NCBI GenBank assembly: GCA_021108405.1
Contig: JAIOQW010000228.1
Coordinates: 1 to 63,565 of the forward strand
Direction of reading: 5' to 3'
Source: Methanosarcinales archaeon
GTDB lineage: Archaea; Halobacteriota; Methanosarcinia; Methanosarcinales; Methanocomedenaceae
Length of the DNA: 63,565 nucleotides
The notes beneath the pieces were generated by a model that was given only the letters and a program-made list of their open reading frames with translations, made no database searches and was not told the DNA's origin. Shown here one piece after another: positions 3,458 to 48,200 of this stretch. Made by a program: the position numbers and the translations under genes. Every line of letters begins with the position of its first letter. Within the stretch, counting starts at the first letter, position 1.

Positions 3458-3584
3458 TACTTTTTAATTATTTTCTGGTGACAATGACATTTAAAAATAG
3501 GGTAATTGATTATCTCCATTTACTTGACAGGGAGAAATTACACCAGATACATCAGCTTTGTGGAAGTAAATATTTGTCTTTTTA

Positions 3585-3697: not shown

Positions 3698-3706
3698 GTT
3701 CTGATC

Positions 3707-19117: not shown

Positions 19118-19118
19118 T

Positions 19119-19190
19119 AAAATCCTCGCTAGCGCTCGGATTTTATTGATTGAAGCTTCGAAGAAGCTGAAGATTATAAGATTCGTAGAA
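19119..19190 (+). repeat. H hairpin plus T-tract (putative smc terminator) followed by two further hairpin modules
   Basis: aaaatcctcgctagcgctcggatttt lies at 19119-19144, immediately after the smc stop. It is followed by tgaagcttcgaagaagctgaag and aagattcgtagaatctt. The block is the inverted counterpart of 3641-3697. Confidence 0.7.
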
Positions 19191-19546
19191 TCTTCGCCTG
19201 AGGCTCTATACTATGAAAATTAAGATTATTCTTTCCTCATTTTAGTAGGAGTAATGTTATTGTCAACTTATACAGCGATAGCAATAGCAGAGCCACCTTA
19301 AATTCTCACTACAACACAAAGGCTGCAGATTATAACTACGAATCAGTTTGCAGTTAAAACAAATTTTATGTGTCATAGTACTCATGGTATGATCTGATAA
19401 TCTTAACATAGACGTAACCACTGGCATTGGCAGTCAAATCTCTGGCAATGATATTAAAAAGTTCAAGAAGTACAATAAATTGGGACATATATATAATAAA
19501 AATTAATTCGGAAATTATTTATAAATAAAAGCAAATGTAAATAACC

Positions 19547-31879: not shown

Positions 31880-34717
31880 TCATATTTTCTGTCTGTGTAG
31901 TATGAGTATTGCAATCAACAGCATACATATGCCTGCAATCGAACCAAAACCAGGTGAGCCGGTATTCTCCCTGGATGATGTTTGTTCCGGAGCCTGTGTT
32001 GATATATCGTCTTTACTTTCAGTCGACTTAGCTTCTGTATCTTTTTCACCTGCTACACTTGTAGATGTCTTGCCAGTTATCGCAAACGGAGAGAAACCTG
32101 GTGTTTTAGCTTTAAAGCACAGGCAATTTTCATTCTTATCTATCTGTGTAGTTTCAAGCGGTTTCCATTCTTCATCACTAAACCTGTACAATTTAATAGT
32201 GGATTCAACGATATTGTTTTCTTTGATCCAGGACCTTTCTACTTCAAATTTAATCTCTGGATCGGAAATATGTTCCGAAGTTGCCCAACTGCTGCTCCCG
32301 GCCCAGATATTCAGGTTTATAAATACTTCATCCGGTGCCTCACTATCTGCCAACGATGATCTGGATTTCAGTATCTCGACCTTTACAGCAACTTTTCCTG
32401 AGTTTGAAAGAGGTGTGAAAGTAATAGAGTTTATAAAATTATCTTCCGAATCAAAATTATAGGTTACTCTTGAACCTTTACTCAAATATTCTCTTTCAGT
32501 CTCCGATGTCTCTATATTTGCATAATTTTCACCGGATGCACCACCGCGTGAGCTGCTTCCGCCTCCACCACCGCCGTTTCCGGGTGGGGTGGAGTCTGGT
32601 GCTCTGGTCTGCAGGCATGTGAAGACAGGGGCAAAACCGTTGCTGGTTCTTTCCTGGAATTTGACAACTTCATCAGTGCCAGATGCGGTTATGTCATTCT
32701 TGTCCACATCACTCCTGTTGATACCAAGTGGATATAAGTAATTACAAGAAGGTACTCCGGCAACGCATTGCCATGCACTTACTTCCCATGAGCGGTTGTT
32801 GAACTGCTGGGATTCGCTTCCAGGCGCTACGGCATCGACTGTAACAGTGAACAGATTCGCTTCTGCTATTGTAGTGGGATCCACATCTGTAAGTGTGGTG
32901 GTCGTTGTTGCATCCTCTGGTAACACCTTGTACTGTGTACTATAATATGTAGCAAGTCGATCGTATCCATGAGCTATCGCGTACGTGTTATCGCTGCCAT
33001 CATCGTAGATGATCATCAGAGCCATGCCGGATACATATCCCTTTCCTTTTAAGGTGGGATCTGTATTATTGCAATTTGACCGAACTGCCTGATAAGCACC
33101 ATTCCCGGCAACATTGTCTGTTACATCATACACCAGCGTTCCGTACTGATACTCAGATGTGGTAAATCCTTTGATGTCAGTATAGTACTCATCGGTTGTG
33201 AGTGTGCTGCCACCGTTGATGGACATCTCATAGTCCGGTCTTGGGTCGGCGCCAGGATTGGGACCAGTTGCCGATTTTCGGTAGGTGTAGTACACATACA
33301 GTGTTGCGTTCTTTATCGTTGCACCTGCGGGAACCTCTGCAGTCAATCCGTCTACCTGATTCTCATCTCCGGATGCCTCGATGCTGAAGTTCACTGTATT
33401 GTTCTTGTACTTGAAATCTCCAACCGAGTAGATCACACCGCCTATGCCCTCGTATGCAGTGGTCATCGAATTATCTCCACGATATCCATAGCATGTATCA
33501 GGCAGCATATCATCAACAGTGCAGTTTCCTGTGGTGTTTCTGGACACGATGAGATTGTTGTTGCCTTCTTTAGTACCTTCATCCACTACACCGCCGCTAT
33601 CAGCAAACGCTGTTATCGAGATGTTTTCAAGAACGGTTGGCTTCCAGTTACCAACTTCAACTACTGCACTCTCACTACCATTCAGTACAGGCACAGTTGC
33701 CGTTAATACGGTCGGGCCGCCTGTATGTGTGATGGTTAGATTTACATCGCAACTAGCAGTGGATGCAGTACCCTGATTCATCACATTTACAGATAACACA
33801 TTCGTAAGATTGGTGAATATATACTGCGGGTAAATGTTGCTTACGACAAGGTCTGGCCTATATTCCACTGTTAGAATTGCATTGCATATGTTGACACTTG
33901 GATCAGAGCCTTGACTGAACCATGCATCATTTCCTGATGTATTCATATAATTCGTTACGCTCCATGTATGCATATCGAAGAAATTAGTGTTTATGCAACT
34001 TGTATCCAGCTCATTACCATTGAACTTCATGCAGTTGCTACAGGATGGATCATACCCAGTAAGATGCACCAGAGTGAGATTTGCCATCGCAACATTATCA
34101 GTACTCACTGTGCCAACAAAATTTGTAGTTCCTGTGGGATTAGTGGAACTAAGGGGTTCACTTCCGTTATTGATCCAGTACTGAATCTGCTTCGGGTCAT
34201 CCCCACCCTCGTAGACCACAACCAACACAATGCCATAAACTCTGCCATCAATGCTATCACTATCATTGATCTTCGATGTAGTTGCAGTGTTTATCTGTCC
34301 TGTATTAACTAAGTCGGTTACATTATACCAAAACCAGTGCTTACCAAGACCTGTACACCAGACATTATTATTACTATCGCTTTCACCCTCTAAATGTATT
34401 GGACCGAGTTTGTTGCTGGTACTATCTCCATTGAATGTAACATTCACCCAACCGTCCTTGGATACACCATTACCCCAGACACCAGTGTACAGGTAAGCAT
34501 ACTTAACGGTTCCATTCGGTACATCAGTGTTTAGTGTGCGAGTTGTGCTATCGTCCCAACCAACGCTATCATAGAAAACACCGCCGTTGACGGTGCCGTT
34601 GATCATAGTATCTACAGTCCATCCATTAGAACTATAATCTGCTTTGGATGATACTGCCAGCAAGCATACAATTAAAATGCTAAATAAAATTATTGAATAT
34701 CTATTTCTACTAACCAT
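31880..34717 (-). CDS. Large cell-surface glycoprotein: two DUF3344-like modules, a CARDB-like domain, a Gly/Ser linker, a PGF-pre-PGF-like domain and PGF-CTERM
   Basis: Signal peptide MVSRNRYSIILFSILIVCLLAVSSKA. The module recurs (GIVLVVVYEGGDDP, GMALMIIYDDGSDN). PDLVVSNIYP...NVMNQGTASTASCDVNLTI is CARDB-like, followed by a GNGGGGGGSSSRGGASG linker. The C-terminal motif is GSPGFGSIAGICMLLIAILILHRQKI. There are many NxS/T sequons. Confidence 0.75.
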   Translation of the reverse strand: MVSRNRYSIILFSILIVCLLAVSSKADYSSNGWTVDTMINGTVNGGVFYDSVGWDDSTTRTLNTDVPNGTVKYAYLYTGVWGNGVSKDGWVNVTFNGDSTSNKLGPIHLEGESDSNNNVWCTGLGKHWFWYNVTDLVNTGQINTATTSKINDSDSIDGRVYGIVLVVVYEGGDDPKQIQYWINNGSEPLSSTNPTGTTNFVGTVSTDNVAMANLTLVHLTGYDPSCSNCMKFNGNELDTSCINTNFFDMHTWSVTNYMNTSGNDAWFSQGSDPSVNICNAILTVEYRPDLVVSNIYPQYIFTNLTNVLSVNVMNQGTASTASCDVNLTITHTGGPTVLTATVPVLNGSESAVVEVGNWKPTVLENISITAFADSGGVVDEGTKEGNNNLIVSRNTTGNCTVDDMLPDTCYGYRGDNSMTTAYEGIGGVIYSVGDFKYKNNTVNFSIEASGDENQVDGLTAEVPAGATIKNATLYVYYTYRKSATGPNPGADPRPDYEMSINGGSTLTTDEYYTDIKGFTTSEYQYGTLVYDVTDNVAGNGAYQAVRSNCNNTDPTLKGKGYVSGMALMIIYDDGSDNTYAIAHGYDRLATYYSTQYKVLPEDATTTTTLTDVDPTTIAEANLFTVTVDAVAPGSESQQFNNRSWEVSAWQCVAGVPSCNYLYPLGINRSDVDKNDITASGTDEVVKFQERTSNGFAPVFTCLQTRAPDSTPPGNGGGGGGSSSRGGASGENYANIETSETEREYLSKGSRVTYNFDSEDNFINSITFTPLSNSGKVAVKVEILKSRSSLADSEAPDEVFINLNIWAGSSSWATSEHISDPEIKFEVERSWIKENNIVESTIKLYRFSDEEWKPLETTQIDKNENCLCFKAKTPGFSPFAITGKTSTSVAGEKDTEAKSTESKDDISTQAPEQTSSRENTGSPGFGSIAGICMLLIAILILHRQKI

Positions 34718-34795
34718 GTTACCTATTCCATAAAAAGTAATACTGTTTATAAAATGTAAGTGGTTTCGTATGTTATAAATATGTTTTCATTAACC

Positions 34796-34938
34796 GAGAC
34801 CGTTACAATTCGTGTTGGTGAATCTTATGAAACCACAGATAAACACAGATGAACACAGATTTTCAGGCAGCGTATCCGTGTTTATCTGTGTTCATCTGCG
34901 GTTATTTTAATAGTACCAACATGTAATGTAACGGTCTC
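34796..34938 (+). mobile_element. 143-bp MITE, copy 1, flanked by the 8-bp direct repeat CATTAACC
   Basis: Terminal inverted repeats gagaccgttaca...tgtaacggtctc. Each arm carries three tandem 10-bp units (ccacagataa acacagatga acacagattt). The duplication cattaacc lies at 34788-34795 and 34939-34946. Confidence 0.9.
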
Positions 34939-35006
34939 CATTAACCCAGTATCTCCGGGCAATATATCAAAATTTTATAGTCCAAACTTCCTGTGTGTTT
35001 AATTTC

Positions 35007-35084
35007 CATTTGTGATCGGTTAAGGAATTTTAATCCGTGTCTGAAAAAATGCTTTCAAACTTTATCAAGATCACTTTCTATTCA
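35007..35084 (+). repeat. Repeat module R2, copy a
   Basis: catttgtgatcggttaaggaattttaatccgtgtctgaaaaaatgctttcaaactttatcaagatcactttcta aligns with 41955-42052, which carries 20 extra bp of 10-bp tandem units. Confidence 0.8.
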
Positions 35085-35251
35085 GAAGAAAAGCTACAAT
35101 TGGAATCAGTTTAATCGTTTCATCATATTTAATCCACTCCCAAAGCAGAAGATATATCATTCGCTATACAACCTGAACCCGTAGAGGATGTGCTTCTTAA
35201 AGAGCCGGATGAGGGAAATGTTATATACTATAAAAAAAGAAATACAGATCA

Positions 35252-36370
35252 ATGTCTTCAATCAAGTCAATAATATTCTTTAGTACAGTACTTATTTTAG
35301 TATTGATAAGCTCTTTTCCGGCAGCTTATGCATTTGCTCATTATGCATCTAATAATAATACCAGTAATAGCACAGGTATAATGATGGGAAATACATCCAC
35401 ATCATCAAATGTAGTGGAAATAATTATTGTACAGCATTTAATTGAAGTAGATCACCTGATAAATGAAGGTTATTTGACAGTAACCGAGACAATTATCTTC
35501 AGAAATGTTGGTACACAAAATTATACGGGACCTATTTACACATGGCTGCAGGATGATGCATTTAATCTGGTAGTATCGAAAAATAAGATGGCAATGGATA
35601 GCCAGGGTATTGCTATTACGTCATTCCAGGTCGATGATAATATTATCGGATGGAATGATTCTATCCAGAGCAGTATGGGTATGCCATCTATGTATCATCT
35701 GGAGTATATGATACCAGTAGATCCTAATAAGGAAAAAATGGGATCAGTTGATTTTATTAAGGAAATAACAGTTCCTGCGACTGTGAATTATAATTATGTA
35801 CCTATGACAGGTATGTATGCATTGGTTATTAATACAATACAACCGGAAAATACCGGGATCACGATAACTGATTGTGACGGAGTGGAAATAGAACCTGATT
35901 TTGTAGAAGAAGGGGTCAATAATATGAAGAAATATAACTGGGTAAGCCCTTCATTTACCCGGATCTGCATTGAGATCAGTCAATCAAAATCAGGTGGGTC
36001 TTCAACCATCCTTTATGCAGGCATTATACTGGTTATTATCGGAGTAGTGGGCTATTTCTTACTTAAAGGGAATGGTCAAAAGGAAGAAAACGTAGAATAT
36101 GAAGATGAGGATGCTGGAGGATATGAAGATAAGGACGCTTCTAAATATAATGATGAAGAAGAAGTTCTCACAAAAAAGGATATTGAAAATAATTCATTAA
36201 ATGAACTTAGAGCAGCTAAAAAGGCTGTTTCCAGGGTACTCAGGGAACTTGATGATGATTATTCCAGTGGTATTATATCAGAAGATGAATATGATACTAT
36301 CCGCAGTAACTATAAGAAAAAAGCTGTGGACATTGCCAAACGCATCGAGATGCTTGAAAAAGAACAGTAA
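35252..36370 (+). CDS. Single-pass membrane protein: secreted N-terminal domain, TM helix, acidic linker, SHOCT-like C-terminus
   Basis: The signal peptide ends AAYAFA|HYAS. The TM helix is ILYAGIILVIIGVVGYFLL. The acidic stretch EYEDEDAGGYEDKD is followed by ISEDEYDTIRSNYKKKAVDIAKRIEMLE. Confidence 0.5.
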   Translation: MSSIKSIIFFSTVLILVLISSFPAAYAFAHYASNNNTSNSTGIMMGNTSTSSNVVEIIIVQHLIEVDHLINEGYLTVTETIIFRNVGTQNYTGPIYTWLQDDAFNLVVSKNKMAMDSQGIAITSFQVDDNIIGWNDSIQSSMGMPSMYHLEYMIPVDPNKEKMGSVDFIKEITVPATVNYNYVPMTGMYALVINTIQPENTGITITDCDGVEIEPDFVEEGVNNMKKYNWVSPSFTRICIEISQSKSGGSSTILYAGIILVIIGVVGYFLLKGNGQKEENVEYEDEDAGGYEDKDASKYNDEEEVLTKKDIENNSLNELRAAKKAVSRVLRELDDDYSSGIISEDEYDTIRSNYKKKAVDIAKRIEMLEKEQ

Positions 36371-36379
36371 CTATTATTT

Positions 36380-36420
36380 AGTATATCAAGTAATAAAATC
36401 CGAGCGTTAGCGAGGATTTT
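36380..36420. repeat. Half P module plus an H hairpin with T-tracts on both strands, between convergent genes (putative bidirectional terminator)
   Basis: agtatatcaagtaat is followed by aaaatccgagcgttagcgaggatttt. The hairpin overlaps the cbiO stop codon. Confidence 0.7.
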
Positions 36421-37345
36421 ATTCATGATAATGAAATTTATTAAGGGTAGCAGTGACTCCCGAATGGGTATGTTTATGGCAATGCAGGTGTATATGCCCT
36501 TCCCCGTTCTCGATCGTTTGTGTCAGGTTCTTTACCGCACCTTTTAATGACAACGGAAGTTTATCACATGGATATCCAAAAAACTGGAACATCTCAAAGA
36601 ACTGCATGATCACAGGGATCTCCAGTCCTGCTCGAATAAGCATATCAGTATCTGAAAAAATTTCTCGTGTGGTCCCATCAGCGATCACTGTCTTGTTAAG
36701 TACGATCACTCTTTCTGTGAGTTCCGGAATTGCATTGATATCATGTGTGATGATAATCAGCGTTTTTCCCTGGTTTTTAAGTCCTTTCAGGATATCTATC
36801 AACTCCCTTCTGCTCTTAGGGTCCAGATTAGCAGTTGGTTCATCAAGTGCAAGAATATCAGGTCCCATGGATAGTACAGTGGCAAGTGCAGCCCGTTTCT
36901 TTTCACCTCCACTTAGATGGTGCGGGACCCTTTTCTCATATCCGGCAAGTCCGACCATTGCAAGTGACTCTTTTACTCTTAAGTTTACTTCTTCTTTATC
37001 CATCCCAAGATTAATAGGACCAAATGCTACATCATCACCAAGCATTGGCATAAATAGCATATCATCGGGGTTCTGGAACATGATTCCTATTTTCTTTGGC
37101 ATTTCATGTATTTTTTTTGAATCAATTGTAGTCCCAAATATTTCAACAGACCCGCTCCCCTTACCTGATTCACGTGTTCTTTTACCTGGCAGTATACCGT
37201 TAAGATGCAGCAATAGTGTTGATTTACCTGCACCGTTGGGTCCTGCTAAAGTTACTGATTCACCTTTATCAATATCGAACGATACATGTTCAAGTGCAAC
37301 TGTCCCATCGAGAAAGGTGTAATTAAGATCATGTATATGTATTGC
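36419..37345 (-). CDS. cbiO: ECF-transporter ATPase component (CbiO/NikO type) with a His-rich C-terminal tail; start codon unresolved
   Basis: The Q-loop MFQNPDD, signature LSGGEKKR, Walker B LALDEP and H-loop ITHD lie in the track ORF. Walker A (GESVTLAGPNGAGKSTLL) lies in-frame upstream of the track start (37213), and I see no ATG/GTG/TTG there. The tail is GEGHIHLHCHKHTHSGVTATLNKFHYHE. Confidence 0.8.
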   Translation of the reverse strand, partial: AIHIHDLNYTFLDGTVALEHVSFDIDKGESVTLAGPNGAGKSTLLLHLNGILPGKRTRESGKGSGSVEIFGTTIDSKKIHEMPKKIGIMFQNPDDMLFMPMLGDDVAFGPINLGMDKEEVNLRVKESLAMVGLAGYEKRVPHHLSGGEKKRAALATVLSMGPDILALDEPTANLDPKSRRELIDILKGLKNQGKTLIIITHDINAIPELTERVIVLNKTVIADGTTREIFSDTDMLIRAGLEIPVIMQFFEMFQFFGYPCDKLPLSLKGAVKNLTQTIENGEGHIHLHCHKHTHSGVTATLNKFHYHE

Positions 37346-37350
37346 AGCCG

Positions 37351-38136
37351 TTATAACACCTCCATTGTACTTGATATAGCTGCTATATGTATAAAAATTG
37401 CAAATCCTATTACTATAATCATATTAACCCAGTCCTGGGGTCTAAGCGTGAACTCATGTAATGTTGTTACCGTACCTGTATATCCCTTTGACCTCATTGC
37501 ATAGAACACACGATCAGCACGTTCATAGCTCTTTACCAGAAGCATTGCAATAGCTTTACTAATAGAAGTTAAGGAAAAAAGACTTGCCCTGTTCCTATAT
37601 CCTCTTGATTTGAGGGAGTGTTCCATGTTCGTGAACTCATCAGAAAGTACGAAAATATACCTGTAAGTGAATGCAAACATCTGAATTAATTTATTTGGAA
37701 GATGCAGACCCTCAAGTGCTTTAATAGTAATATCTATTCTGGATGTCCCTATCATAGGGAAGATCAGCATTACTGCTGTGAGTGCTTTTATCATGATCAA
37801 CAAGGCATATACCACATATTCGATCCCCCTATAGTAAAGTGTAATGCTACCCAAATTTGCTATTGCAATACCGCCACCTAAGAAGGTAAATGGTAAGATT
37901 ATTAGAAAAGGCAGTACAAATATGAATACCCATTTTAAGCGTGATAGAATAAAAGAAATAGGGATCTTTGATAAAAAGACTAACATAATTGCAAAGCACA
38001 TAGTGATCACTACCAGTATAAGATCATAAAGAAGCATGATCGAAAATATCAATACAAAGATAGATACGATCTTAAGACGGGGGTCCCATCTATGTATAGG
38101 CGAAGAAAGTCCGGAATATTGGTCTATTTCTAACAT
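37351..38136 (-). CDS. cbiQ: ECF-transporter transmembrane (T) component CbiQ/NikQ
   Basis: 261 aa, multi-TM, with the conserved-looking C-terminal ARG motifs (SLKSRGYR, ERADRVFYAMRSKGY). It sits between cbiM and cbiO. Confidence 0.8.
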   Translation of the reverse strand: MLEIDQYSGLSSPIHRWDPRLKIVSIFVLIFSIMLLYDLILVVITMCFAIMLVFLSKIPISFILSRLKWVFIFVLPFLIILPFTFLGGGIAIANLGSITLYYRGIEYVVYALLIMIKALTAVMLIFPMIGTSRIDITIKALEGLHLPNKLIQMFAFTYRYIFVLSDEFTNMEHSLKSRGYRNRASLFSLTSISKAIAMLLVKSYERADRVFYAMRSKGYTGTVTTLHEFTLRPQDWVNMIIVIGFAIFIHIAAISSTMEVL

Positions 38137-38142
38137 TGTTTA

Positions 38143-38751
38143 TTAAATACACAACATATCGGGTTTGACTTTTGCAAAGAACCCGGCCATCACACCGGTA
38201 AATATAGCCTCAATTATAATGACAGGGATATGAGCAAACACAACAAAAGTTGTCACTTCAGTGAACTCCGAACCTGTAATTAGAAGTTCAACAGCAAGCA
38301 TCATCACCGAAAGCGCTACTGCAATGCCGCCTGCGAGTGATCCGAATAATACTTCTTTTCGTTGAAAATCAAAATTGAGACCCATTCCGGTTCTAAATAT
38401 AAGAAAAGCTATTAACGCGGGTGCACCCATATTAAGAGCATTAAGACCTATTGTCGTGACCCCGCCGTGCTGGAACAGGAAGCACTGCATTATTATTGAT
38501 ACTACCAGGCAAGGAACTGATAATACACCAAGTGTCACACCTGCAAACCCGTTAAGTACCAGATGAACACTGGTGGGCCCTACCTGAAAATGTATCAGGG
38601 ATGCCACAAACACTGCTGCAGTAATAACAGAGAGTTTGGGGATATCTTCCATATTCATCTTTGCCAGTCCATAAGCGAGTAACCCGGCAGAGAGCACCCA
38701 GCCAAATCCCATCAGCCATGGTGCAACTATTGCATCTGAAACGTGTACCAT
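38143..38751 (-). CDS. cbiM: Ni/Co ECF substrate-capture component CbiM/NikM
   Basis: 202 aa, about 6-7 TM helices, N-terminus MVHVSDAIVAPW (His near the N-terminus, as in the MH... metal-binding N-terminus of CbiM/NikM). The operon context is M-Q-O. Confidence 0.8.
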   Translation of the reverse strand: MVHVSDAIVAPWLMGFGWVLSAGLLAYGLAKMNMEDIPKLSVITAAVFVASLIHFQVGPTSVHLVLNGFAGVTLGVLSVPCLVVSIIMQCFLFQHGGVTTIGLNALNMGAPALIAFLIFRTGMGLNFDFQRKEVLFGSLAGGIAVALSVMMLAVELLITGSEFTEVTTFVVFAHIPVIIIEAIFTGVMAGFFAKVKPDMLCI

Positions 38752-38759
38752 TTTTTCCT

Positions 38760-39218
38760 CTACTTTTCTTTACATTCTTTTTGTATTTTCCTGGCGCTGA
38801 TATACATAGATATTCCAGCCAATCCTGCCAATAACCCAAAACCGGTAATTATCTGCATATAAAGCGGCAGTTCCGCTTCTTCCTGTTGCCCCTCTGTCAT
38901 GTTGAATTTATACTCATCTCCATGACCGGTAGCTGATACTACTACTCTATACCCTGATGCACCTAATTGCGGAGTGAAGTTGTACAGTCCTTCCTCATCT
39001 GTTTTACCTGTCTGGTATAGGTTCTCTTCACCTGATTTATTAGAGTATATCTCTATATCTGCAAATGCCATTGGGTCTCCGCCTCCGTACCACGCTTTTA
39101 TCTGAACCTGTGTTATCTGTTCCCGGATATGTACCCTGTGTGCAGAAGCAGCCGGTGCAAATATCATGCAAATAATAAGTACTAGTACCAGAAGACTTAT
39201 GTATTTTATTTGTTTCAT
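38760..39218 (-). CDS. Small secreted, C-terminally anchored accessory protein in the CbiN/NikL position (Ig/transthyretin-like fold guess)
   Basis: The signal peptide ends AASA|HRVHI, followed by a beta-rich middle (TDEEGLYNF...GYRVVVSATGHGDEY) and a C-terminal TM helix (IITGFGLLAGLAGISMYI). It lies 8 bp upstream of cbiM. Confidence 0.5.
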   Translation of the reverse strand: MKQIKYISLLVLVLIICMIFAPAASAHRVHIREQITQVQIKAWYGGGDPMAFADIEIYSNKSGEENLYQTGKTDEEGLYNFTPQLGASGYRVVVSATGHGDEYKFNMTEGQQEEAELPLYMQIITGFGLLAGLAGISMYISARKIQKECKEK

Positions 39219-39261
39219 GCGTAAACTCCTTATTTATTGCATAAATAGATACCATATTACT

Positions 39262-39404
39262 GAGACCGTTACATTACATGTTGGTACTATTAAAATAACC
39301 GCAGATGAACACAGATAAACACGGATACGCTGCCTGAAAATCTGTGTTCATCTGTGTTTATCTGTGGTTTCATAAGATTCACCAACACGAATTGTAACGG
39401 TCAC
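39262..39404 (-). mobile_element. 143-bp MITE, copy 2 (inverted relative to copy 1), flanked by the 8-bp direct repeat ATATTACT
   Basis: It is the reverse complement of 34796-34938 with a single terminal difference (ggtcac versus ggtctc). The duplication atattact lies at 39254-39261 and 39405-39412. Confidence 0.9.
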
Positions 39405-39413
39405 ATATTACTT

Positions 39414-39556
39414 GAATGCAACGCCTTAAGGGACGTGAAGGAAACGCAGATTGACGCTAATATAAGGTTGCATCTGCGTAAATCAGTGTTTCCTGCACGC
39501 CCCTTTAGGCGTTGCAGGCATTCAACTCCGCAGGAGTTGAATGTATCTGCGTTTAA
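39414..39556. repeat. Z element: a ~110-nt imperfect long hairpin plus a perfect 9-bp stem hairpin
   Basis: The arms are gaatgcaacgccttaagggacgtgaaggaaacgcagat and atctgcg...gtttcctgcacgcccctttaggcgttgcaggcattc. The second hairpin is ttcaactcc gca ggagttgaa (39521-39541). A related element lies at 55383-55453. Confidence 0.75.
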
Positions 39557-39575
39557 TATAGTTGATCTATTGATC

Positions 39576-40592
39576 TTATTTTCTTCTCATTACTATCAGG
39601 AGTGCAGCTATCAGGCCAAGTACGGAAAGGATCATTCCAAAACCTGGTGATGACTGTTTTGCTTCATCTGCAGACTTTTTTGCATCTTCTGCTGCCTGAT
39701 TGGCCTGCGCTACTGCCTGGTCAAGTTCTGCACTTGATGTAGTTGATGCAGTTGATGAGGATCCGTCAGGTGGGAATGATTCAATTATAGGTACAATGAA
39801 CACGCCTCTTATATTGCGGCCGGTTTCAGGTTCCATGGTAGCTCCGACAAACCATATTCCAGGTTCATCAAGTGAATAAACAAACTCTCCCTGACCATTG
39901 GACTTGGTAACTCTTGTGAATACCATCGGTGGGTCATATGAGTACATACTTTCTGCTTTTTCCACTATCTCCACTCCAAGTTCCTTTGTGTGATATATCT
40001 CAACCTCAACTGAAGCATCTGTTAGCGGCTCATCGTTATGCATTGCCTGTCCTGCAAACACAAAACCTTCTTCCATGCCGTAGGGGCGCATATAGGGCAT
40101 TATTTCAGTTTCCTGTCCGACCTCTGCATCCCAGCCTTCCCACATCTCTACACCACAATGGATAACAGCCTTAGTATAATCTATCAGGTTTTCACCTTCG
40201 TCCTCATATTTCACAAATATTACAGAATCCCCGTCCTGATCAACAGTGAATGAAGTCTTATATGCTACGAAAATTCCATCATTTCCGTCTTCATCCATTC
40301 CATCAACTTCTATCTCGCTGGTTTCGAGTTTCTCAACAGTGCCATCAGGCTTCATAACAGATACCTCGGGTACGGATGACATATTAAATAGTATATGTTC
40401 ATATGGGTGTCCCCACATCATATATATCGTCTTTGTCTCTCCAAGGTCTGCTATATAATCCTCAGGTGTCACATCCCATATGGTATTCTCACTATCACTT
40501 GGAAATACCATAGTGAAATGTGCACATGCTGTGCCGGAAGATGCTAATAAGAGCATCATTATAAGTGAAATTCTTATAAAAGTTGTATTCAT
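39576..40592 (-). CDS. DUF4198-like (NikK/CbiK-type) extracytoplasmic metal-binding protein with a PGF-CTERM anchor
   Basis: The signal peptide ends GTACA|HFTMVFP, followed by WGHPYEH. The C-terminus has an Ala/Gln/Glu-rich linker and then SSPGFGMILSVLGLIAALLIVMRRK. Confidence 0.6.
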   Translation of the reverse strand: MNTTFIRISLIMMLLLASSGTACAHFTMVFPSDSENTIWDVTPEDYIADLGETKTIYMMWGHPYEHILFNMSSVPEVSVMKPDGTVEKLETSEIEVDGMDEDGNDGIFVAYKTSFTVDQDGDSVIFVKYEDEGENLIDYTKAVIHCGVEMWEGWDAEVGQETEIMPYMRPYGMEEGFVFAGQAMHNDEPLTDASVEVEIYHTKELGVEIVEKAESMYSYDPPMVFTRVTKSNGQGEFVYSLDEPGIWFVGATMEPETGRNIRGVFIVPIIESFPPDGSSSTASTTSSAELDQAVAQANQAAEDAKKSADEAKQSSPGFGMILSVLGLIAALLIVMRRK

Positions 40593-40855
40593 TTTTATTA
40601 CTCCATTCTAATAGTTGCATACGATTTTTATATGTCGTGTTACTTTTGTTGCTACATCATTCGCTATTTCATGTTATATAATTCTTTCGATAATAGTCAG
40701 TATCTCCAAAAAACTTTTTGATATTCCTTCAATTCCTGAGTCAGTTTCAAACGCTTTGATTTCAATTTAATTATGAAATAATTCTTATTTCTATATCCAT
40801 TTCAAAAAATACAATCTGTATTAATCATTGTTTATATTGTCTACCACAGGCTCAG

Positions 40856-41758
40856 TTATCTTTTATTTACTATTAAAAACACAACAGTATTATTAACCGG
40901 CGGCTTTGGCGGAACCCTTCGATATTCTTGAAAGACATCTGGTAATTCATAGCGTGAGAAAGTATCCAGTAATCTCCTGAGGCCCTTCTCATATTTTCTA
41001 TATGATATAACTGTCCCTGAAAGGAATACTTTTGCCATATGATTAAAGATATCCTTTTTAGGTTCGGCCTGGGCTGCTACCATAATAAGCTCACACTTTT
41101 CTTTTAAAGGAAGTGATTGGTGATTTCCTTCAATTATCTTGATCTGGTTCGAAAGTCCTAATTTTGATAATACTTTTTTTGAGAGATTAACTCTTTTGGG
41201 GTCTTGTTCTATCCCGATTCCCTTAAGCCCGTATTGATGGCAGAGGACTATGAGTGTTAAAGGCATTGGACCACTTCCGAGAAATACAACACGATCACCA
41301 GGTTTTAAACCGGCTCCCTCATATTCTACCTGAGCAAGTTGAAGATAATTTGAAAAATATGAAACATTTTCAAAAACGTCCCATGGATGATGACTTTCCA
41401 GTATAGAGTGTGCCTGTTCATTCTCTATTAATGCATAATACTGGCTTCTATACCTGGTAATTACATCAAATGCCAGTTCTAGTTCAGTATTATAAAGAAC
41501 TTCTTCGATATATTTATCGTCTATTTGTTGTGCAATCAGATTATCCAGCCTTTGAAAAGCTGATGTAAGAAATGTAGAATGATCCCGGCAATCTTGTATA
41601 TTATCAGATTTGATTAAAAGAAAATATATATCTACTATTTCTTTGATTACTGACCCTGTATAGTAACTTACAGTATTATATATATTTGGAATAGACTTTT
41701 GATATAATTGTGAACTATATTCTAATAAGATTTGATCATTGTTTTTCACGTATGTCAT
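40856..41758 (-). CDS. Nicotianamine synthase-like protein
   Basis: VSYFSNYLQLAQVEY followed by RVVFLGSGPMPLTLIVL and ELIMVAAQAEPKKDIFNHMAKVFLSGTVISYR reproduce the NAS pattern I remember (FpYy.NY..L...E; vaFiGSGPLPLTsivL; DvVflAALVGm...K). Confidence 0.65.
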   Translation of the reverse strand: MTYVKNNDQILLEYSSQLYQKSIPNIYNTVSYYTGSVIKEIVDIYFLLIKSDNIQDCRDHSTFLTSAFQRLDNLIAQQIDDKYIEEVLYNTELELAFDVITRYRSQYYALIENEQAHSILESHHPWDVFENVSYFSNYLQLAQVEYEGAGLKPGDRVVFLGSGPMPLTLIVLCHQYGLKGIGIEQDPKRVNLSKKVLSKLGLSNQIKIIEGNHQSLPLKEKCELIMVAAQAEPKKDIFNHMAKVFLSGTVISYRKYEKGLRRLLDTFSRYELPDVFQEYRRVPPKPPVNNTVVFLIVNKR

Positions 41759-41921
41759 AATATATCACAATTTTTTTGTTAAGAAGGTATTATTCAAATC
41801 TAATATAGTATCTTCGGTAAAATCAGGTGAACCCATAAAAAAAACTATATTATGCCTTAAATAATCTTGACTATTTTAAAAATCGTGCAGGAGGGTGTTA
41901 TAGATATGAATGATTGTAGTT

Positions 41922-42052
41922 TTGTATCCACTTCAAAAAAACATGGTATTTTGACATTTGTGATCGGTTAAGGAATTTTAATCCGTGTTAATCCTTGTTA
42001 ATCTGTGTCTGAAAAAAAGCTTTCGAACTCTACCAAGATTACTTTCTACTCT
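41922..42052 (+). repeat. Composite of repeat modules R3 (41922-41956) and R2 copy b (41955-42052), including three tandem 10-bp units
   Basis: The tandem units taatccgtgt taatccttgt taatctgtgt lie at 41979-42008, whereas copy a has one unit. R3 matches 22464-22497. Confidence 0.8.
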
Positions 42053-42292
42053 ATAGAAAGTGTAACTTCAACATATCCAATAGCATTTTTTCTACGTAGT
42101 TCCAGCCGGGTCTGGAACTGATCGATCAGATGCGATCTAAAAATGGAAAATATTCACCTAACCAACGCCTTTGAGATATTATAAAAAATACAATATTCCG
42201 GGATTGGTTTATTTCCAAAGTCAAGATTACTCCAAAAATTATAATTATCAATAAAACATTGTAGTTTATGCTACAAAAAATAGGAGGTTTCC

Positions 42293-42571
42293 ATGTCAAG
42301 CATTCCAATGCGTATAAAACGAAACACCAAAGACCGGATTGAAAAGATGCAATCTTTATTGAGATTGAAAAATGTAAAAATAAATCAACGACAATTAATT
42401 GATAATGCTGTTGAATTTGCTTATTTTCATGAAGATGATTTTATCGTCTATCTAATAAGTTCGAAAGTATCACTGGAAGAAGACACACTCTGGCAACTTA
42501 TTCATAATCCGGTTGATATGGGCAAGACCGACGCTGAGAAAGTTGACGAATACCTTTATGGCGGTGACTGA
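42293..42571 (+). CDS. Putative antitoxin partner of the PIN-domain toxin (VapB-like)
   Basis: 92-aa ORF ending 1 bp before the PIN gene. The N-terminus MRIKRNTKDRIEKM looks RHH-like. The call rests on context only. Confidence 0.45.
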   Translation: MSSIPMRIKRNTKDRIEKMQSLLRLKNVKINQRQLIDNAVEFAYFHEDDFIVYLISSKVSLEEDTLWQLIHNPVDMGKTDAEKVDEYLYGGD

Positions 42572-43021
42572 TTGTCATTATTTGTTGATACAGGAATATT
42601 TTTTGCTGCATTTTCAAAAAATGACACTCATCATGTTGAAGCAGTAGGATTACTTGAATGTGCACTACTGGGAAAATGTGGAGCAATATACTCCTCTGAT
42701 TACATTTTTGACGAGACTGTGACACTTGCAAGGGTTCGGACACATAATTATGAAATAACTTCAAAGATTGGAGATATGATTAAAAACTCTTCAAGAATCA
42801 GACTATTAAGAGTGGATGAAGATATTTTTAATAAGGCGTGGGATATTTTTGGGAAATATCATAATAAAGAACTTAGTTTTACAGATTGTACATCGATAGC
42901 ATTAGTAAAAACACAAAAAATTGATATGATATTTAGTTTTGATCTTCATTTTGATGGAATACTTAATCGAATTAATTCGGTACATGATCTATCTACTGGA
43001 GTGCACCCCAAAAAAAGCTGA
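42572..43021 (+). CDS. vapC: PIN-domain ribonuclease toxin (VapC-like), TTG start
   Basis: LFVDTGIFFA (first Asp), SSDYIFDET and SFTDCTSIAL...FSFDLHF give the acidic quartet layout of PIN domains. Confidence 0.75.
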   Translation: MSLFVDTGIFFAAFSKNDTHHVEAVGLLECALLGKCGAIYSSDYIFDETVTLARVRTHNYEITSKIGDMIKNSSRIRLLRVDEDIFNKAWDIFGKYHNKELSFTDCTSIALVKTQKIDMIFSFDLHFDGILNRINSVHDLSTGVHPKKS

Positions 43022-43377: not shown

Positions 43378-45264
43378 TTACCTCTTACTCACTAACTTTC
43401 GTCTCATAACAGCAGCAGCAATCGTAAACATCACACCCACAATAAGCAATATCCCCCCACCCCACAACAGACTTGCAAAAGGATATTTCTTTACAGAAAA
43501 CTCGATATTCTCAATCCGTATGCTGGGTGTACAACTGGATCCCTGGAAATCAAGCTGTATATCACCAAGCAGACCATGTCTCACTCCGGGCTTAGCAATA
43601 AACCCGTACTGAAGGCTCTTCCAGAAAAGACTCTTCATTTCGTATGTACCACTATCGACCACTTCAACATTCAGGGTCTGGACCCAGTCAGTATCAGTAT
43701 ACTCAACATCATAATCAATAAAGCGCACACCTAAACCATTATCTTCCTTATATACCCCTTTTTCATCAAGACTATAATGAAAAGTATGTACAGTTGCAAA
43801 AGAAGTGCTTAATAACGCACCCAGAATTAGAAAAATAAAACCCGCATGGATCAAATTAATACCTGTAAGGTGAATGGCTATCTTCTTGTTCTTTACTTTA
43901 AGATCATTTATCATTTTAAAAATAATACTGGCTATGACAAAGAAAAATGCACTCAAGTATAAGAGTACATTGACTCCGGAAGGTATGACAATAACAAGTA
44001 TAAGAGACACAGCGAAATAAAACATAACTACAATAGACAGAGTATTATCCTTTACCCTGCCATACAGCATACAGACACCGGTAAGATAGGTCAGGGCCAG
44101 GATCAAACAAAAGAAGAAAAAATTATAATATTCAGGTGGCAGAATAACAGCTTTTCCGGTATAATAGAGGATTATATACACAGTAGGTCCCCATAATGAA
44201 ATAAATATCATGATAAGTAAGATCACGATCGTAAAATAAAACGTATTCTGGGGCTCAAAAACTTCACGAAAACCGCCTGTTACCGTAGTGAGAGAGATAT
44301 CATGTTTCAGTGCATATATTACCGAATAAAAAACCACTATCACAATAAAAATTAAAAGCATCCACCATGTGGGTGTTCCCGGGAAACTGTGGATAGAGCC
44401 GAAGATGTCACTCCTTGCAACTAAAGTGGTATACAAACATGCAAGAAATGCACTGATACATAACAAAGGAAAAAGTCGTTTATATTCACCCCTGTTAAAA
44501 CGTACCACAGCATGCAGAGCAGTAGTTAATAGGAGCCATATAGCCATGGTACATGATTGCAAAGGGTCCCACTGCCAGAAACCGTTCCATCCAAGCAGAC
44601 GGTTAGCCCATAATCCCCCCGTAAGCATACAGATGCTTAACATTATCCATGAAATTCGCAGATAAATCCTGATACCGGTCATCCTCTTCTCATTTACAGT
44701 AAGATAAGCAAGCGATACGGCTGCAGGTATAATAACAAACGCATATGCAATAAGAGTGGTAAAAATATGTACAGGCATAAGGATATCTATAAGTGCGGGA
44801 CTGATACCGTTACCTGATAAAGGCAACGATGCACCGCTTACAATAAATATTGAATTAAAAGGCGTCATAACGATCGCCAGAACAAGCAAGAATGCACAGC
44901 CAATTAATGCATACATGATAGCGATCTGGTCAATATGCGAACATTTTTTATTCAGTTCGGTAAATATCAAAACAACCAATACCGAAAGCCACGCCCATAC
45001 CAGATATGTTCCTTCCTGGCCTGTCAGTATAGCAGCAAGCCTGTAAAAAAGGGATAGATCCCCGCTGTCATGCTGCCAGACATAGATCAAACTATAATCA
45101 AGGAATATAAATGCATATGCCAGTAACAGTACACAAAGAGTGGATAGAACCGCTGCAGTCCTGATCAACAGGATGGCCTGCTTATTTCTCCCTGTGTACA
45201 TAACAACACCAGCTAAACAAGTAGACAGAAAAGTCAAATATAATAGAATATTTCCTACAGTCAT
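43378..45264 (-). CDS. ccmF: CcmF-like cytochrome c heme lyase / assembly protein
   Basis: 628 aa, about 15 TM helices, Trp-rich WWD-type motif GWNGFWQWDPLQS. The start overlaps the stop of the 2153-aa cytochrome by 4 bp. Confidence 0.75.
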   Translation of the reverse strand: MTVGNILLYLTFLSTCLAGVVMYTGRNKQAILLIRTAAVLSTLCVLLLAYAFIFLDYSLIYVWQHDSGDLSLFYRLAAILTGQEGTYLVWAWLSVLVVLIFTELNKKCSHIDQIAIMYALIGCAFLLVLAIVMTPFNSIFIVSGASLPLSGNGISPALIDILMPVHIFTTLIAYAFVIIPAAVSLAYLTVNEKRMTGIRIYLRISWIMLSICMLTGGLWANRLLGWNGFWQWDPLQSCTMAIWLLLTTALHAVVRFNRGEYKRLFPLLCISAFLACLYTTLVARSDIFGSIHSFPGTPTWWMLLIFIVIVVFYSVIYALKHDISLTTVTGGFREVFEPQNTFYFTIVILLIMIFISLWGPTVYIILYYTGKAVILPPEYYNFFFFCLILALTYLTGVCMLYGRVKDNTLSIVVMFYFAVSLILVIVIPSGVNVLLYLSAFFFVIASIIFKMINDLKVKNKKIAIHLTGINLIHAGFIFLILGALLSTSFATVHTFHYSLDEKGVYKEDNGLGVRFIDYDVEYTDTDWVQTLNVEVVDSGTYEMKSLFWKSLQYGFIAKPGVRHGLLGDIQLDFQGSSCTPSIRIENIEFSVKKYPFASLLWGGGILLIVGVMFTIAAAVMRRKLVSKR

Positions 45265-48200
45265 TTAATCCGTCTCCATATTAAGATCAATGACCCTGTA
45301 ATAATGATCAAAGGTAAGATCCATTTCAATATTAACTCTATAAACGCCATTCCACCTGGCTTCTTCACAGTAAGCAGGTCAATAGCATCTCTACTCCACT
45401 TACCTGATGAGTCCTTTACATGTACTAAAAAAATATACTGGCCCGGAGGCATATCCGATGTGTCGATCACAGCACCGAGCAGTACAGATGAATCGTTTGA
45501 ACCGCCAACCACGAATTGCAGCGGTTTACCAGTACCATCCTTACCCATATCATTGATGAAATACTCACCCACTGTTACCTTAGTAAGAGGCGGAAGTACC
45601 ACAGTACATTCCAAAAGGCTTACTTCCCCGCTAATTACTCTATCAGGTTTAAGTGAGACCGCAATACGGGGAATAAATTCACTGGTTGCAAGAGTATGAA
45701 GGCTGACAGGGTCACCGCCGCCGTGACATAACGTACAGTTAGGTGCAAAACCGTGAGCTGTACCAGAAGGTGAAAGTCCTTCCGTACCCATGTTAGTGGC
45801 ATTGAATGGTGATGCTCCTCCATGATAGGTATGACAGTCCTTACACCCGGTAATATTCCCTGTATCCCAGTCCTGCCACCCGGTATCCTGTACAGTACCC
45901 AGTGGATACGAGTCAAAGTGGAACCTGCTCTCTCCTGTAGCATTATGGCAGGATGTACAGGTAATTATAGTCCGGTTGAACAGAGGGTGTGAAATACTTG
46001 CCCTCATCCCACCTTTCAATTGAACTGAGGAATTATATTCAACTTTAAGAGATTCAATATCTTTGTGGCATTCCCGGCACCCTTCAAATGTTTCATCAGT
46101 AAGATTGCCAACTATTCGTGTAAGTTCATGGTATTTGTCTGCCTCCTCATTATGACAGATTATGCATGTTGTGGTCTTGTTTGCTGTCTTTATCTCTGCT
46201 CCCGCATAATGCATGGAACCGTATTCAGTGTGGCAATCCGTACACAATATACCTTCATAAGGCTGGTATTTACGTTCTTCATGCGGAGGATGACACTCAG
46301 TACATTCGACATCGTGCTTGATCGCACCTGTGAAATACCCCTTATCCACTAAAAACGGAGAATGTGACCTGCTTACACTTTCAGGGTCATGGCATTCTTC
46401 ACATCCGGAAACTACTTTTACTCCTGACCCGTGACGCAGTACATCTATCTGTGATTGTGGTTTATGCGGGAACTGTCCCTCAACACTGTGACATGGGAAA
46501 CAGTAGCCAAATGTCTCATTGGCATATTCCCTGACAATAAGACCGGTATGTATCGATTTGTTAGTAGTATTATGACATACGGAACAGGTATATTCATAAT
46601 TTTTCAAAGTGTTTACCTTATCTTCAGGTGCACCCGGATAGTGCGTGATGAGCGGGCTTAAATTGAACTTTTCCGCACCCTCTTTATCCACATGACAGTC
46701 CTCACACTGCCTGGTTATGGTTATACCAGTATCATGGAACATGGCCACTCCTTCACCTGCATGACATAGGGTGCAGTCATTGTCTGCATTGTGTTTGGTG
46801 ATCTGCGGAGCATCTCCCCATAATAGGCCGTTGGTTTCATTGTTATGACACACAGCACAGTGTGAAGTATGTAATAGATCATCCCTTGTTGAATAATGTG
46901 AAGTTGCAGCTTTTGCATTTTTTAAAGTGTCGTTGGTAAAGGTCAGTGAATGGCAGTCCCAGCACCCGGCATCTGTTGATATCTCAGCACCTGAATAATG
47001 TGTATATATCTGTACAGCATCGAATTTTGAATATGCATGACAGCTTACACAGGAGGTGGCTGGGTCAGTGCCAAAATAGGCTGTCGGGTGTTCTACAGGT
47101 TCATCACTGCTACCATTACCGTGACACGCCCAACATGCCTTGTTAGCTTCATCGGTGATAAAACCCGAATAGGTGGCATTGGAATTAAGACCAACATGCA
47201 CACCATCTTTAAATTTATTAATATCGATCTTTATAGGTGCTACACCATCACCTGCATGGCAGCTTATACAATCCGCAGTGTATATACCAGGTGTAATAGT
47301 ACCTACATGGAACGTTCCTGGTTCGCCCCCCAGAGTGATAAGGCTATCAAGAGGCAGATATTTTGGTTGTATGTTTGTCTGGAGTATAGAAGTATTTTCA
47401 TCAATGATCTTATGCTCTTGTGCGATCAACAGCACATCGCTCAGGGTAACAGACAGAGTAGACATACCTGTAAAAACACAGTCCAGCTTTGCGTGGAATA
47501 TTTCAATATCCCTATCAAGCATTTCCTGCTCATGCGTGAAATAGCTCCCCTGGGTGATCACGCTATCTTCTATCAATGTCTTGTTCCTATAGAGTCTAAA
47601 GTGTGCATTGTTCTGCTTTACACTCACATCCACAACTTGCAGACTAAAGTGCTCTCCAAGATCCCATATTTCTCCTGATGTAAGCATTTTTTTATCATGC
47701 TGTGCAAAATTGACAGCTATCCTGCCAAGAGTAATATTCTCATCTTTTCTTTGTAGTACAACATAGTCCGTACCATCCGGTATATTGGTACGGTATTCAC
47801 GGTCATGACAGGCATAGCATTGTTTATTTTCTGTTTCTATATGAATGCGTGACGAAAGCACATTTCCGCAAACTTCTGCTACAAAACTACCTCTTGATGA
47901 GAATATTTTCGTTACTATGAGATCAATAAGAGTGGTATTATTATCCTCGATCCCACTGATCTCGTATGTAAGCCTGCCGCCTTTTGATATGTAATCACGC
48001 TTAAGCAGTACACCGTTTTGCTTAATGTCAAACACTGCATCATTGGGTGTGGTCTCTATTAATACCAGTGAATAATTATCTATCAGCCTGAACGATTCAC
48101 CTGCACTCAGAGTCTCATTGATAAGGGTATAATGCGTATGATTTCTTTGATCAGGTGGATCTCCCCATCCATCTGCAATACCTGTATGACATTTGATACA

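Follow-up and report, generated by a model that had tools for sequence, protein, structure and literature searches.

Which role does a nicotianamine synthase (NAS) homologue play in an archaeon that encodes it next to a metal importer? The question is raised by a locus at positions 36419-41758 (minus strand) of contig JAIOQW010000228.1 from a Methanosarcinales archaeon (assembly GCA_021108405.1), of which we analysed the whole 63,565-nt stretch, in the following called the window. A sequence-only reading had proposed a nickel or cobalt acquisition locus, in which a NAS-like gene lies upstream of a surface-anchored DUF4198 protein, a small accessory protein and the transporter genes cbiM, cbiQ and cbiO. 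We found that the locus encodes a NAS-family enzyme together with a complete energy-coupling factor (ECF) importer of the nickel type, and that NAS and nickel importer genes are linked in related as well as unrelated genomes.

Methanogens and methane oxidisers need much nickel for coenzyme F430 of methyl-coenzyme M reductase (MCR), for carbon monoxide dehydrogenase/acetyl-CoA synthase (CODH/ACS) and for hydrogenases. Sulfide keeps free nickel very low in their habitats, and how these organisms obtain and handle the metal is poorly understood. To our knowledge, the physiological role of archaeal NAS has been open since the structure of MtNAS from Methanothermobacter thermautotrophicus appeared in 2009. 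That NAS genes recur beside nickel ECF importers and beside the gene of the nickel regulator NikR provides archaeal NAS with a role concrete enough to be tested. The locus comprises the following features:

40856..41758, minus strand: NAS-family aminobutyrate (3-amino-3-carboxypropyl) transferase, 300 amino acids, class-B paralogue (Pfam NAS)
40618..40643, minus strand: candidate operator or leader with GTAACAC and an imperfect dyad, preceding the nikK ATG by 26-51 nt
39576..40592, minus strand: NikK, predicted extracytoplasmic nickel-binding protein of the DUF4198 family, 338 amino acids (DUF4198 and PGF-CTERM)
39226..39502, no strand: insertion in the nikK-nikL spacer with a palindromic repeat (39262-39402) that looks like a miniature inverted-repeat transposable element (MITE), skipped in related-strain contigs
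38760..39218, minus strand: NikL, small accessory protein, 152 amino acids, anchored by a transmembrane segment (NCBIfam NF058648 below cut-off)
38143..38751, minus strand: NikM (CbiM family), substrate-binding S component, N-terminus M-V-H (Pfam CbiM)
37351..38136, minus strand: NikQ (CbiQ), ECF T component (Pfam CbiQ and TIGR02454)
36419..37354, minus strand: NikO (CbiO), ECF ATPase with intact Walker A motif, probable ATA start at 37354-37352 (PRK13652)
35252..36370, plus strand: convergent neighbour membrane protein, 372 amino acids, no Pfam or NCBIfam match

The NAS enzyme and the adjacent importer

A listing of the open reading frames (ORFs) of the window reproduced all six minus-strand genes in the order and at the coordinates named beforehand. 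Profile searches against Pfam and NCBIfam bore out most of the proposed families, with NAS, DUF4198, CbiM and CbiQ scoring above their cut-offs.

The product of the first gene matches the Pfam family NAS (PF03059) with 105.9 bits (cut-off 27.1), a domain carried by 120 of 120 homologues among the matches listed. A 20-sequence NAS family profile scored MtNAS (3FPE) with 158 bits and the bacterial enzyme CntL with about 45 bits. Over 219 residues the window enzyme is 32% identical to a protein that is itself 99% identical to residues 47-262 of MtNAS. Its residues E112 and Y138, invariant in 20 homologues, align to Glu81 and Tyr107 of MtNAS, the E81Q mutant chain 3FPG marking the position of the catalytic Glu in the alignment. 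In MtNAS these two residues deprotonate the acceptor amine (PMC10491745), and the corresponding catalytic residues are essential in AtNAS1 (PMC10248798). The window enzyme looks catalytically competent. An AlphaFold2 (AF2) model with a predicted local distance difference test (pLDDT) score of 81.5 and low confidence for residues 1-29 recovered the two-domain NAS fold, i.e. an N-terminal helical domain and a Rossmann SAM (S-adenosylmethionine)-binding domain. In a fold search of the PDB the model retrieved MtNAS chains at the top (template modelling (TM) score 0.72-0.83), followed by CntL (0.59-0.79). Generic methyltransferases matched the Rossmann half only, at TM scores of about 0.4.

An ordinary SAM methyltransferase, against which the NAS-like assignment was to be held, is thus excluded by the NAS profile, the fold and the catalytic residues; methyltransferase models gave E-values above 1e-4. 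The CntL equivalog model NF033601 reached 50.4 bits at a cut-off of 350, and with this low score and no CntM in the window, CntL orthology and an opine pathway were rejected as well. From profile, fold, catalytic residues and the low CntL score it follows that the 300-amino-acid protein is a NAS-family member of the archaeal kind and not a CntL orthologue.

Among characterised enzymes MtNAS (MTH675, a thermonicotianamine synthase) compares best: it has the Pfam family, the two-domain fold, the catalytic Glu and Tyr, an archaeal host and a glycine-rich SAM loop (FLGSGPMPLT vs FIGGGPLPLT) in common with the window enzyme, and a Methanothermobacter relative 57% identical to MtNAS likewise stands beside nikM and nikMNQ. 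It differs by the modest identity and by the longer N-terminus of the window protein. Within Methanobacteriales, three loci of the MtNAS clade have a gene for a GNAT acetyltransferase upstream of NAS and opposite to it in strand (L085 576-1208, L083 5414-6040, L087 6337-6849), immediately adjacent in L085 and L087; one NAS of these loci is the above protein with 99% identity to MtNAS.

Among the best 80 of 141 relatives the closest named NAS is that of the ANME-2 cluster archaeon HR1 (82% identity), and DNA of the window recurs in seep metagenomes. The host is an ANME-2-type archaeon (ANME, anaerobic methanotrophic archaea) of marine or cold-seep sediment. The window enzyme falls in a separate ANME clade whose members are adjacent to nikK, and no second NAS copy was found in the 63.6-kb window. 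More broadly, a neighbour-joining tree of 123 NAS sequences separated two old paralogue classes, A and B. Class-A and class-B genes are paired and translationally coupled in Methanosarcina, Methanothrix and Desulfobacterota, and ANME carry class B only, often in several copies. In the same tree the Desulfobacterota sequences nest beside those of Methanosarcina and Methanothrix, which suggests transfer of NAS between domains of life.

The five genes downstream of NAS form a complete NikK-NikL-NikM-NikQ-NikO ECF importer of the nickel type, the matches to DUF4198, CbiM, CbiQ, ABC (ATP-binding cassette) ATPase and NikL assigning it to the five-component NikKLMQO type. In this type, described from proteobacteria, NikK and NikL replace NikN (PMC545781; PMC2667541). 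In agreement with this, the operon ORFs of at least 60 amino acids were the named genes plus overlapping or antisense ORFs only, without a NikN/CbiN candidate. The proteobacterial systems (Rodionov 2004/2006; Zhang 2009) have the same five components, lack NikN and have extracytoplasmic NikK and NikL with N-terminal hydrophobic segments, as in the window; they are also associated with nikR, which adjoins NAS in the closest relatives of the locus. The window system differs from them by its archaeal host, the PGF-CTERM segment on NikK, the gene order K-L-M instead of K-M-L, a NikM starting with MVH instead of MH, and the attached NAS gene. A survey of 2009 did not detect the NikKMLQO type in archaea (PMC2667541).

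NikM matches Pfam CbiM with 156.4 bits and the NCBIfam model 'cobalt transporter CbiM' with 173.5 bits at a cut-off of 173. It starts with the codons ATG GTA CAC, i.e. M-V-H; a GTG alternative start that would give M-H was discarded, since the Val codon is GTA. All ANME orthologues whose N-terminus is intact share the start MVHI(S/T)DG with L081, the closest long relative of the locus, and with Methanohalophilus, while NikM of Desulfospira joergensenii starts with MHISEG. Methionine aminopeptidase removes Met before Val. Applied to NikM, this would produce an N-terminal Val-His, equivalent in its X-His layout to Met-His, as the sequence-only reading had anticipated. His63 aligns to His67 of NikM2 (4M58). 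NikM retains the X-His at its N-terminus and, with His63, a ligand of the planar nickel site.

NikQ scored 123.8 bits with Pfam CbiQ and 124.5 bits with TIGR02454 (cut-off 111.8), and NikO was recognised as an ABC ATPase by profile (PRK13652, 206 bits). CbiO had seemed truncated because the ORF finder starts at the TTG at 37213. The frame is open upstream of this codon and encodes an intact Walker A motif (GPNGAGKST), such that a truncated pseudogene can be dismissed and only the start codon is unusual: the upstream extension contains no ATG, GTG or TTG. An ATA at 37354-37352 overlaps the nikQ stop as ATAA (junction 37349-37363), where other ANME-2 loci have ATG (TTG in L003) at the equivalent start M(T)AAI... 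L081, from an 88-91% identical strain, has the identical ATA sequence, which disfavours a sequencing error and points to tolerated non-canonical or coupled initiation.

NikK carries DUF4198 (93.1 bits, cut-off 34) and, at its C-terminus (SPGFGMILSVLGLIAALLIVMRRK), a PGF motif, a transmembrane helix and a basic tail. The latter constitute a PGF-CTERM anchor at residues 316-338, scoring 20.4 bits in Pfam (cut-off 18.8) and 20.3 bits with TIGR04126, below its cut-off of 24.5. A signal peptide is predicted at residues 1-24, followed by the mature N-terminus His25, and a Ser/Ala/Glu-rich linker precedes the anchor. For NikL the best and only NCBIfam match was NF058648 (NikL family nickel/cobalt ECF transporter subunit), with 56.8 bits below the cut-off of 100, besides a weak CarboxypepD_reg match. 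It has an Ig-like domain and transmembrane segments at residues 7-25 and 123-141, of which the C-terminal one serves as anchor.

That secreted proteins of the locus start with His after signal cleavage had been predicted for three proteins and is supported for two, cleavage being predicted from sequence and orthologues being counted where the N-terminus is intact. In NikK, His25 follows the cleavage site (A|HFTM; A|HYGM in Desulfospira) in 21 of 21 orthologues. In NikL, His27 stands directly after the predicted signal-peptide end (ASA|HRVH), with His in 20 of 20 orthologues, bacterial ones included; A|HR[VM] is typical, and G|HALV, A|HGVK and A|HKVT occur in more distant orthologues. The third protein, encoded at 35252-36370, was ruled out as an N-terminal-His metal protein: its His is not conserved, being found at the AFA| position in the closest relative only, with Y, F or P in other family members. 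This gene lies on the plus strand, convergent with the nik operon, is syntenic in L081 only and is missing from the other 78 NAS loci described below. Its product, from a small family (34 representatives at E<1e-10), has a signal peptide, an extracellular domain, one transmembrane helix and an acidic cytoplasmic tail, with a C-terminal motif that we take to be SHOCT-like. The protein probably stands outside the nickel system.

An N-terminal His as part of a metal site agrees with published work on DUF4198 proteins, which mostly have such a residue after signal cleavage; IsDUF4198 binds nickel, its preferred metal, via its N-terminal His and His18 with a Kd of 18 nM (PMC12537917). In its crystal structure three nitrogen donors hold the nickel, malonate and water occupy the other sites, and the cleft is positively charged (PMC12537917). 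Zcp, the other characterised DUF4198 protein, binds zinc (PMC12663993). Window NikK shares with both the DUF4198 domain and a Sec signal peptide directly before the His. It differs in being predicted to be lipid-anchored on the archaeal surface, whereas IsDUF4198 and Zcp are free in the periplasm, and in being encoded within an importer, of which Zcp is not a part. NikK has no detectable pairwise similarity to PDB chains, neither NikK nor NikL giving a significant match in a PDB sequence search. Across 27 homologues of NikK, H25, H62, H66, H145 and H201 are invariant, and H62 and H66 (motif WGHPYEH) are candidates for the second ligand. The AF2 model of NikK was poor (pLDDT 54; 70-90 in the N-terminal half, weak in the C-terminal half). 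Its top PDB fold match was Zcp with an E-value of 3e-7, at a TM score of only 0.27-0.38.

Linkage of NAS to nickel importers across genomes

To characterise the linkage of NAS and nik genes we scanned NAS loci in one genome per species. The best 80 of 141 relatives were kept and provided 78 distinct loci, in which ORFs were called and searched with the window proteins. A locus was counted as informative if its flanks totalled 5 kb or more, and as linked if one of the nik-specific genes M, Q, K and L lay no more than 5 kb from NAS. By this measure 33 of 57 informative loci were linked: 5 of 7 in ANME-1, 12 of 22 in ANME-2/3, 14 of 20 in Methanosarcina and 2 of 8 in Desulfobacterota. The chance of a random gene lying this near a nik locus we take to be about 1%, a rough estimate made without computation, and relative to this level the linkage is far above chance. 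The NAS/metal-transporter linkage on which the sequence-only reading had staked its case is thus borne out, in related and unrelated genomes.

The linked loci displayed at least six distinct architectures with two importer subtypes. The order NAS-nikK-L-M-Q-O is that of the window and of L081, while in 13 other ANME-2 loci nikK is divergent from NAS. ANME-1 has nikK-M-L-Q-O-NAS. In Methanosarcina a methyltransferase and two NAS genes are placed between nikM-nikN (PDGLE domain) and nikQ-nikO. The isolate Desulfospira joergensenii has nikK-M-L-Q-O-NAS-NAS and a pyridoxal phosphate (PLP) enzyme, packed on one strand. In a Methanothermobacter contig nikM is divergent from NAS, followed by a TPR protein, an MFS transporter and nikM-nikN-nikQ. 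The variety of arrangements, the two importer subtypes and the occurrence in two domains of life argue for selection maintaining the linkage rather than inherited synteny alone. In one ANME-1 locus (L001, 5756-15347) nikK-M-L-Q-O is accompanied by NAS in three tandem copies, followed by another nikK-nikL pair that lacks M, Q and O. The NikL of this extra pair has the N-terminus G|HALVV, and the island also holds a fragment of one more NAS.

Loci of Methanobacteriales were found by a search with the MtNAS sequence. One of them (GCA_015657895.1) combines NAS with a radical SAM protein, FeoAB, NikR and an MFS transporter, and in Methanobacterium a CbiM gene lies about 2 kb from NAS; in Methanobrevibacter (L084) nothing metal-related was seen near NAS. 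MFS or MATE transporters adjoin NAS in L082, L086 and five Methanosarcina loci. Among further recurrent neighbours, a SAM methyltransferase occurred in 29 loci, a radical SAM protein in 9 ANME-2 loci and a PLP enzyme of the Ala-racemase/D-Ser-dehydratase fold in 10 Desulfobacterota loci.

The regulator gene nikR (RHH_1 and NikR_C domains) is found divergent upstream of NAS in L081 (9211-9630), where NAS is 86% identical to that of the window, and likewise beside NAS on a contig of ANME-2 HR1 (L006, 190-609). It also lies within a few kb of NAS in three Methanosarcina loci and in L086. The window contains no homologue of nikR, nor of the methyltransferase, radical SAM protein and PLP enzyme seen as neighbours elsewhere. 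Synteny with L081 stops about 130 nt upstream of the window NAS gene, and the place of nikR (41887-43021) holds a 92-amino-acid ORF without Pfam match followed by a PIN-domain gene, such that the locus of the window strain may have lost an adjacent nikR.

Judged by sequence comparison, each of the components can be placed in a known family (NAS/MtNAS, NikKMLQO, DUF4198, PGF-CTERM), and it is the pairing of NAS with a Nik ECF importer that appears to be new. Full-text searches of the literature found no paper linking NAS with CbiM/NikM, ANME or Methanosarcina; Dreyfus 2008/2009 and Laffont & Arnoux 2020 were outside their coverage, and a prior mention is possible there. The linkage is also present in cultured organisms, namely Methanosarcina isolates, Methanothermobacter and Desulfospira joergensenii DSM 10085, which makes deletion, metabolomics and uptake experiments feasible.

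Possible roles of the NAS product

The reading that we favour, at an evenly balanced confidence, is that of a nickel-acquisition locus whose NAS product is an exported nickelophore delivering nickel to NikK by ligand exchange. NAS would condense aminobutyrate moieties of SAM onto an amino-acid starter to give a thermonicotianamine-like polyamino-carboxylate. Exported by a transporter encoded elsewhere, this chelator would keep Ni(II) soluble in sulfidic porewater. The nickel chelate would then dock on NikK, whose N-terminal His brace would take the metal by ligand exchange and pass it to the N-terminal His of NikL and further to the Val-His/His63 site of NikM. NikQ and NikO would drive translocation of the bare ion, and NikR would switch the system off once nickel is sufficient. 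Three observations favour export: the extra nikK-nikL pair of L001 directly follows three NAS genes, MFS or MATE transporters adjoin NAS in several methanogen loci, and the nickel site of the DUF4198 protein is half open.

A wider version of the export reading is that ANME, several methanogens and some sulfate reducers secrete a nicotianamine-type nickelophore that draws nickel from sulfidic porewater and feeds NikK/NikL, with their N-terminal His, and the ECF importer, with genes perhaps exchanged between ANME-type archaea and Desulfobacterota; this we put forward tentatively, with less confidence than the reading for the locus itself. If true, this would be the first case of metallophore uptake in archaea, and also the first in which an ECF importer is coupled to a metallophore pathway. 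A secreted chelator would furthermore matter for the cycling of trace metals and for how members of methane-oxidising consortia share nickel or compete for it.

In the bacterial Cnt systems (CntKLM, exporter and CntABCDF/CntO; staphylopine, pseudopaline, yersinopine), too, a NAS-like enzyme is encoded beside a Ni/Co/Zn importer, enzyme and importer both serving to acquire metal, but the window has neither a CntM opine dehydrogenase nor a dedicated exporter, and its importer is ECF NikKLMQO instead of a NikA/Opp-type ABC system or a TonB-dependent receptor. The published ECF S component, moreover, binds the bare ion and not a complex.

Several findings weigh against an exported nickelophore. 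A Pfam scan of the larger ORFs in the 63.6-kb window detected no CntM-type dehydrogenase and no NAS-adjacent exporter; most ANME loci are likewise without an exporter beside NAS, and no CntM/exporter cluster was among the recurrent neighbours in the 78 NAS loci. In 24 of the 57 informative loci no nik-specific gene is near NAS, in Methanohalophilus no NAS gene was seen within 8 kb of nikKMLQO, and the partner importer in Methanosarcina has no NikK. The site of NikM2 was reportedly found by Yu et al. in 2014 to bind the bare nickel ion, so that the chelate itself cannot be the transported species. Finally, near-zero RNA depth in the NAS-nikK spacer (see below) suggests that NAS is transcribed separately from nikK, divergence of the spacer between strains being an alternative explanation. 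Of the proposal as a whole, NAS identity and linkage therefore stand, while metallophore-assisted uptake as such is unproven for a window without exporter or CntM-like dehydrogenase.

These findings in part suit a second explanation, in which the NAS product stays inside the cell like plant nicotianamine and takes over the nickel delivered by NikKLMQO. As a cytoplasmic buffer or chaperone it would keep nickel soluble and non-toxic and supply the F430 chelatase as well as hydrogenase and CODH maturation. We consider this rather unlikely, although it ranks next: besides the scarcity of exporters, the bare-ion binding of NikM and the importer of Methanohalophilus without adjacent NAS, it accounts for linkage to NikMN-type importers lacking NikK and for thermonicotianamine having co-purified with MtNAS (PMC10491745). 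In addition, a CobN/ChlI/ChlD-type chelatase set directly adjoins the NAS-NAS-PLP cluster of the Desulfobacteraceae Eth-SRB2 (L071, 10610-18229), and the L081 locus adjoins tetrapyrrole genes (a sirohaem-synthase-type domain and GlutR). The MFS/MATE neighbours in methanogens and the ANME-1 nikK-nikL pair behind three NAS genes speak against an internal chelator, as do the characterised bacterial NAS-like enzymes, which make secreted metallophores (PMC10248798, PMC10491745).

The same architecture could serve cobalt, or the chelator could be broad-spectrum (Zn, Fe, Co, Ni), which we regard as improbable. NikM does pass the 'cobalt transporter CbiM' model, just at its cut-off, cobalt is the predicted substrate of some bacterial NikK1ML1QO systems (PMC2667541), Zcp binds Zn, Cu, Co and Ni (PMC12663993), NAS lies near FeoAB in L086, and staphylopine and pseudopaline are broad-spectrum. 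Nickel is favoured over cobalt because nikR adjoins NAS in the closest relatives, because NikK and NikL are nickel-associated in comparative genomics (PMC2667541, PMC545781) and because IsDUF4198 prefers nickel (PMC12537917); the very large nickel demand of ANME for MCR/F430 points the same way. That the adjacency is non-functional, with a NAS product unrelated to metal uptake and a nearness due to shared ancestry or island structure, would fit the unlinked informative loci, Methanobrevibacter L084 and the repeats and MITE-like elements that flank the genes in a rearrangement-prone region, but is most improbable given six gene orders in two domains of life with two importer subtypes, nikR beside NAS in relatives, and metal chelators as the only known products of the family (PMC10248798, PMC10491745).

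Regulation, expression and surroundings of the locus

The NikR box predicted for delta-proteobacteria has GTAACAC as its half-site (PMC545781). At 40618-40643 this half-site occurs together with an imperfect dyad (ACACGA-N10-TCGTAT), kept between the window and L081, which makes this element a candidate operator or leader; the full delta-proteobacterial box had no match at the locus, and its counts in the window were at chance level. In 13 other ANME-2 loci, all with divergent nikK-NAS spacers (L003, L005, L007, L012, L013, L016, L022, L023, L026, L027, L030, L031, L042), the same position holds a strict dyad GAGAT-N-ATCTC with a spacing of N13/14 in 12 of them and N12 in L012. Written with its flanking letters as (C)GAGAT(A)-N-(T)ATCTC(G), this dyad precedes the nikK start by about 31 nt, varies in its spacer sequence and could be an operator or a leader hairpin. 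A search of 34500-42600 for riboswitches and other known RNAs returned sub-threshold chance matches only.

Expression was followed in cold-seep metatranscriptome assemblies of approximately 90% identical strains, whose contigs cover every gene of the locus. The RNA word depth was 240-340 for NAS in two runs and 600-1900 for nikK, the highest of the locus, in two other runs. One RNA contig extends from upstream of nikK into nikQ; the depth of the NAS-nikK spacer was 0.4-6. RNA contigs of X21 and X23 (window 40853-41938) join position 41938 or 42032 back to 40853, as a tandem duplication of NAS in those strains would give.

The 277-nt insertion between nikK and nikL (39226-39502) is missing from related strains. 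It contains a self-complementary element of 141 bp with a 100% identical inverted copy at 34798-34938, downstream of a DUF3344 surface-protein gene. The element looks MITE-like, and the high RNA word depth at the insertion probably reflects copy number. The surface protein (31880-34717), large and of the DUF3344/CARDB kind, bears a PGF-pre-PGF domain, and its gene is about 6 kb away from NAS. In a Methanobacteriales genome a DUF3344/CARDB/PKD protein (L087, 11058-14804) directly follows a cluster of NAS, radical SAM, ABC and NAS genes; the nearness to NAS in both genomes may be coincidence.

On the other side of the locus, 43378-51722 and 53541-54257 encode a CcmF/NrfE-type haem lyase, a 2153-amino-acid S-layer multihaem cytochrome and a smaller MtrC-like cytochrome, an extracellular electron-transfer set typical of ANME-2. 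A DDE transposase (DUF772 and DDE_Tnp_1) is encoded at 429-1325. Short repeats at 3579-3702 and 19116-19207 recur in L081, where they flank nikR and NAS, which marks the region as rich in mobile repeats.

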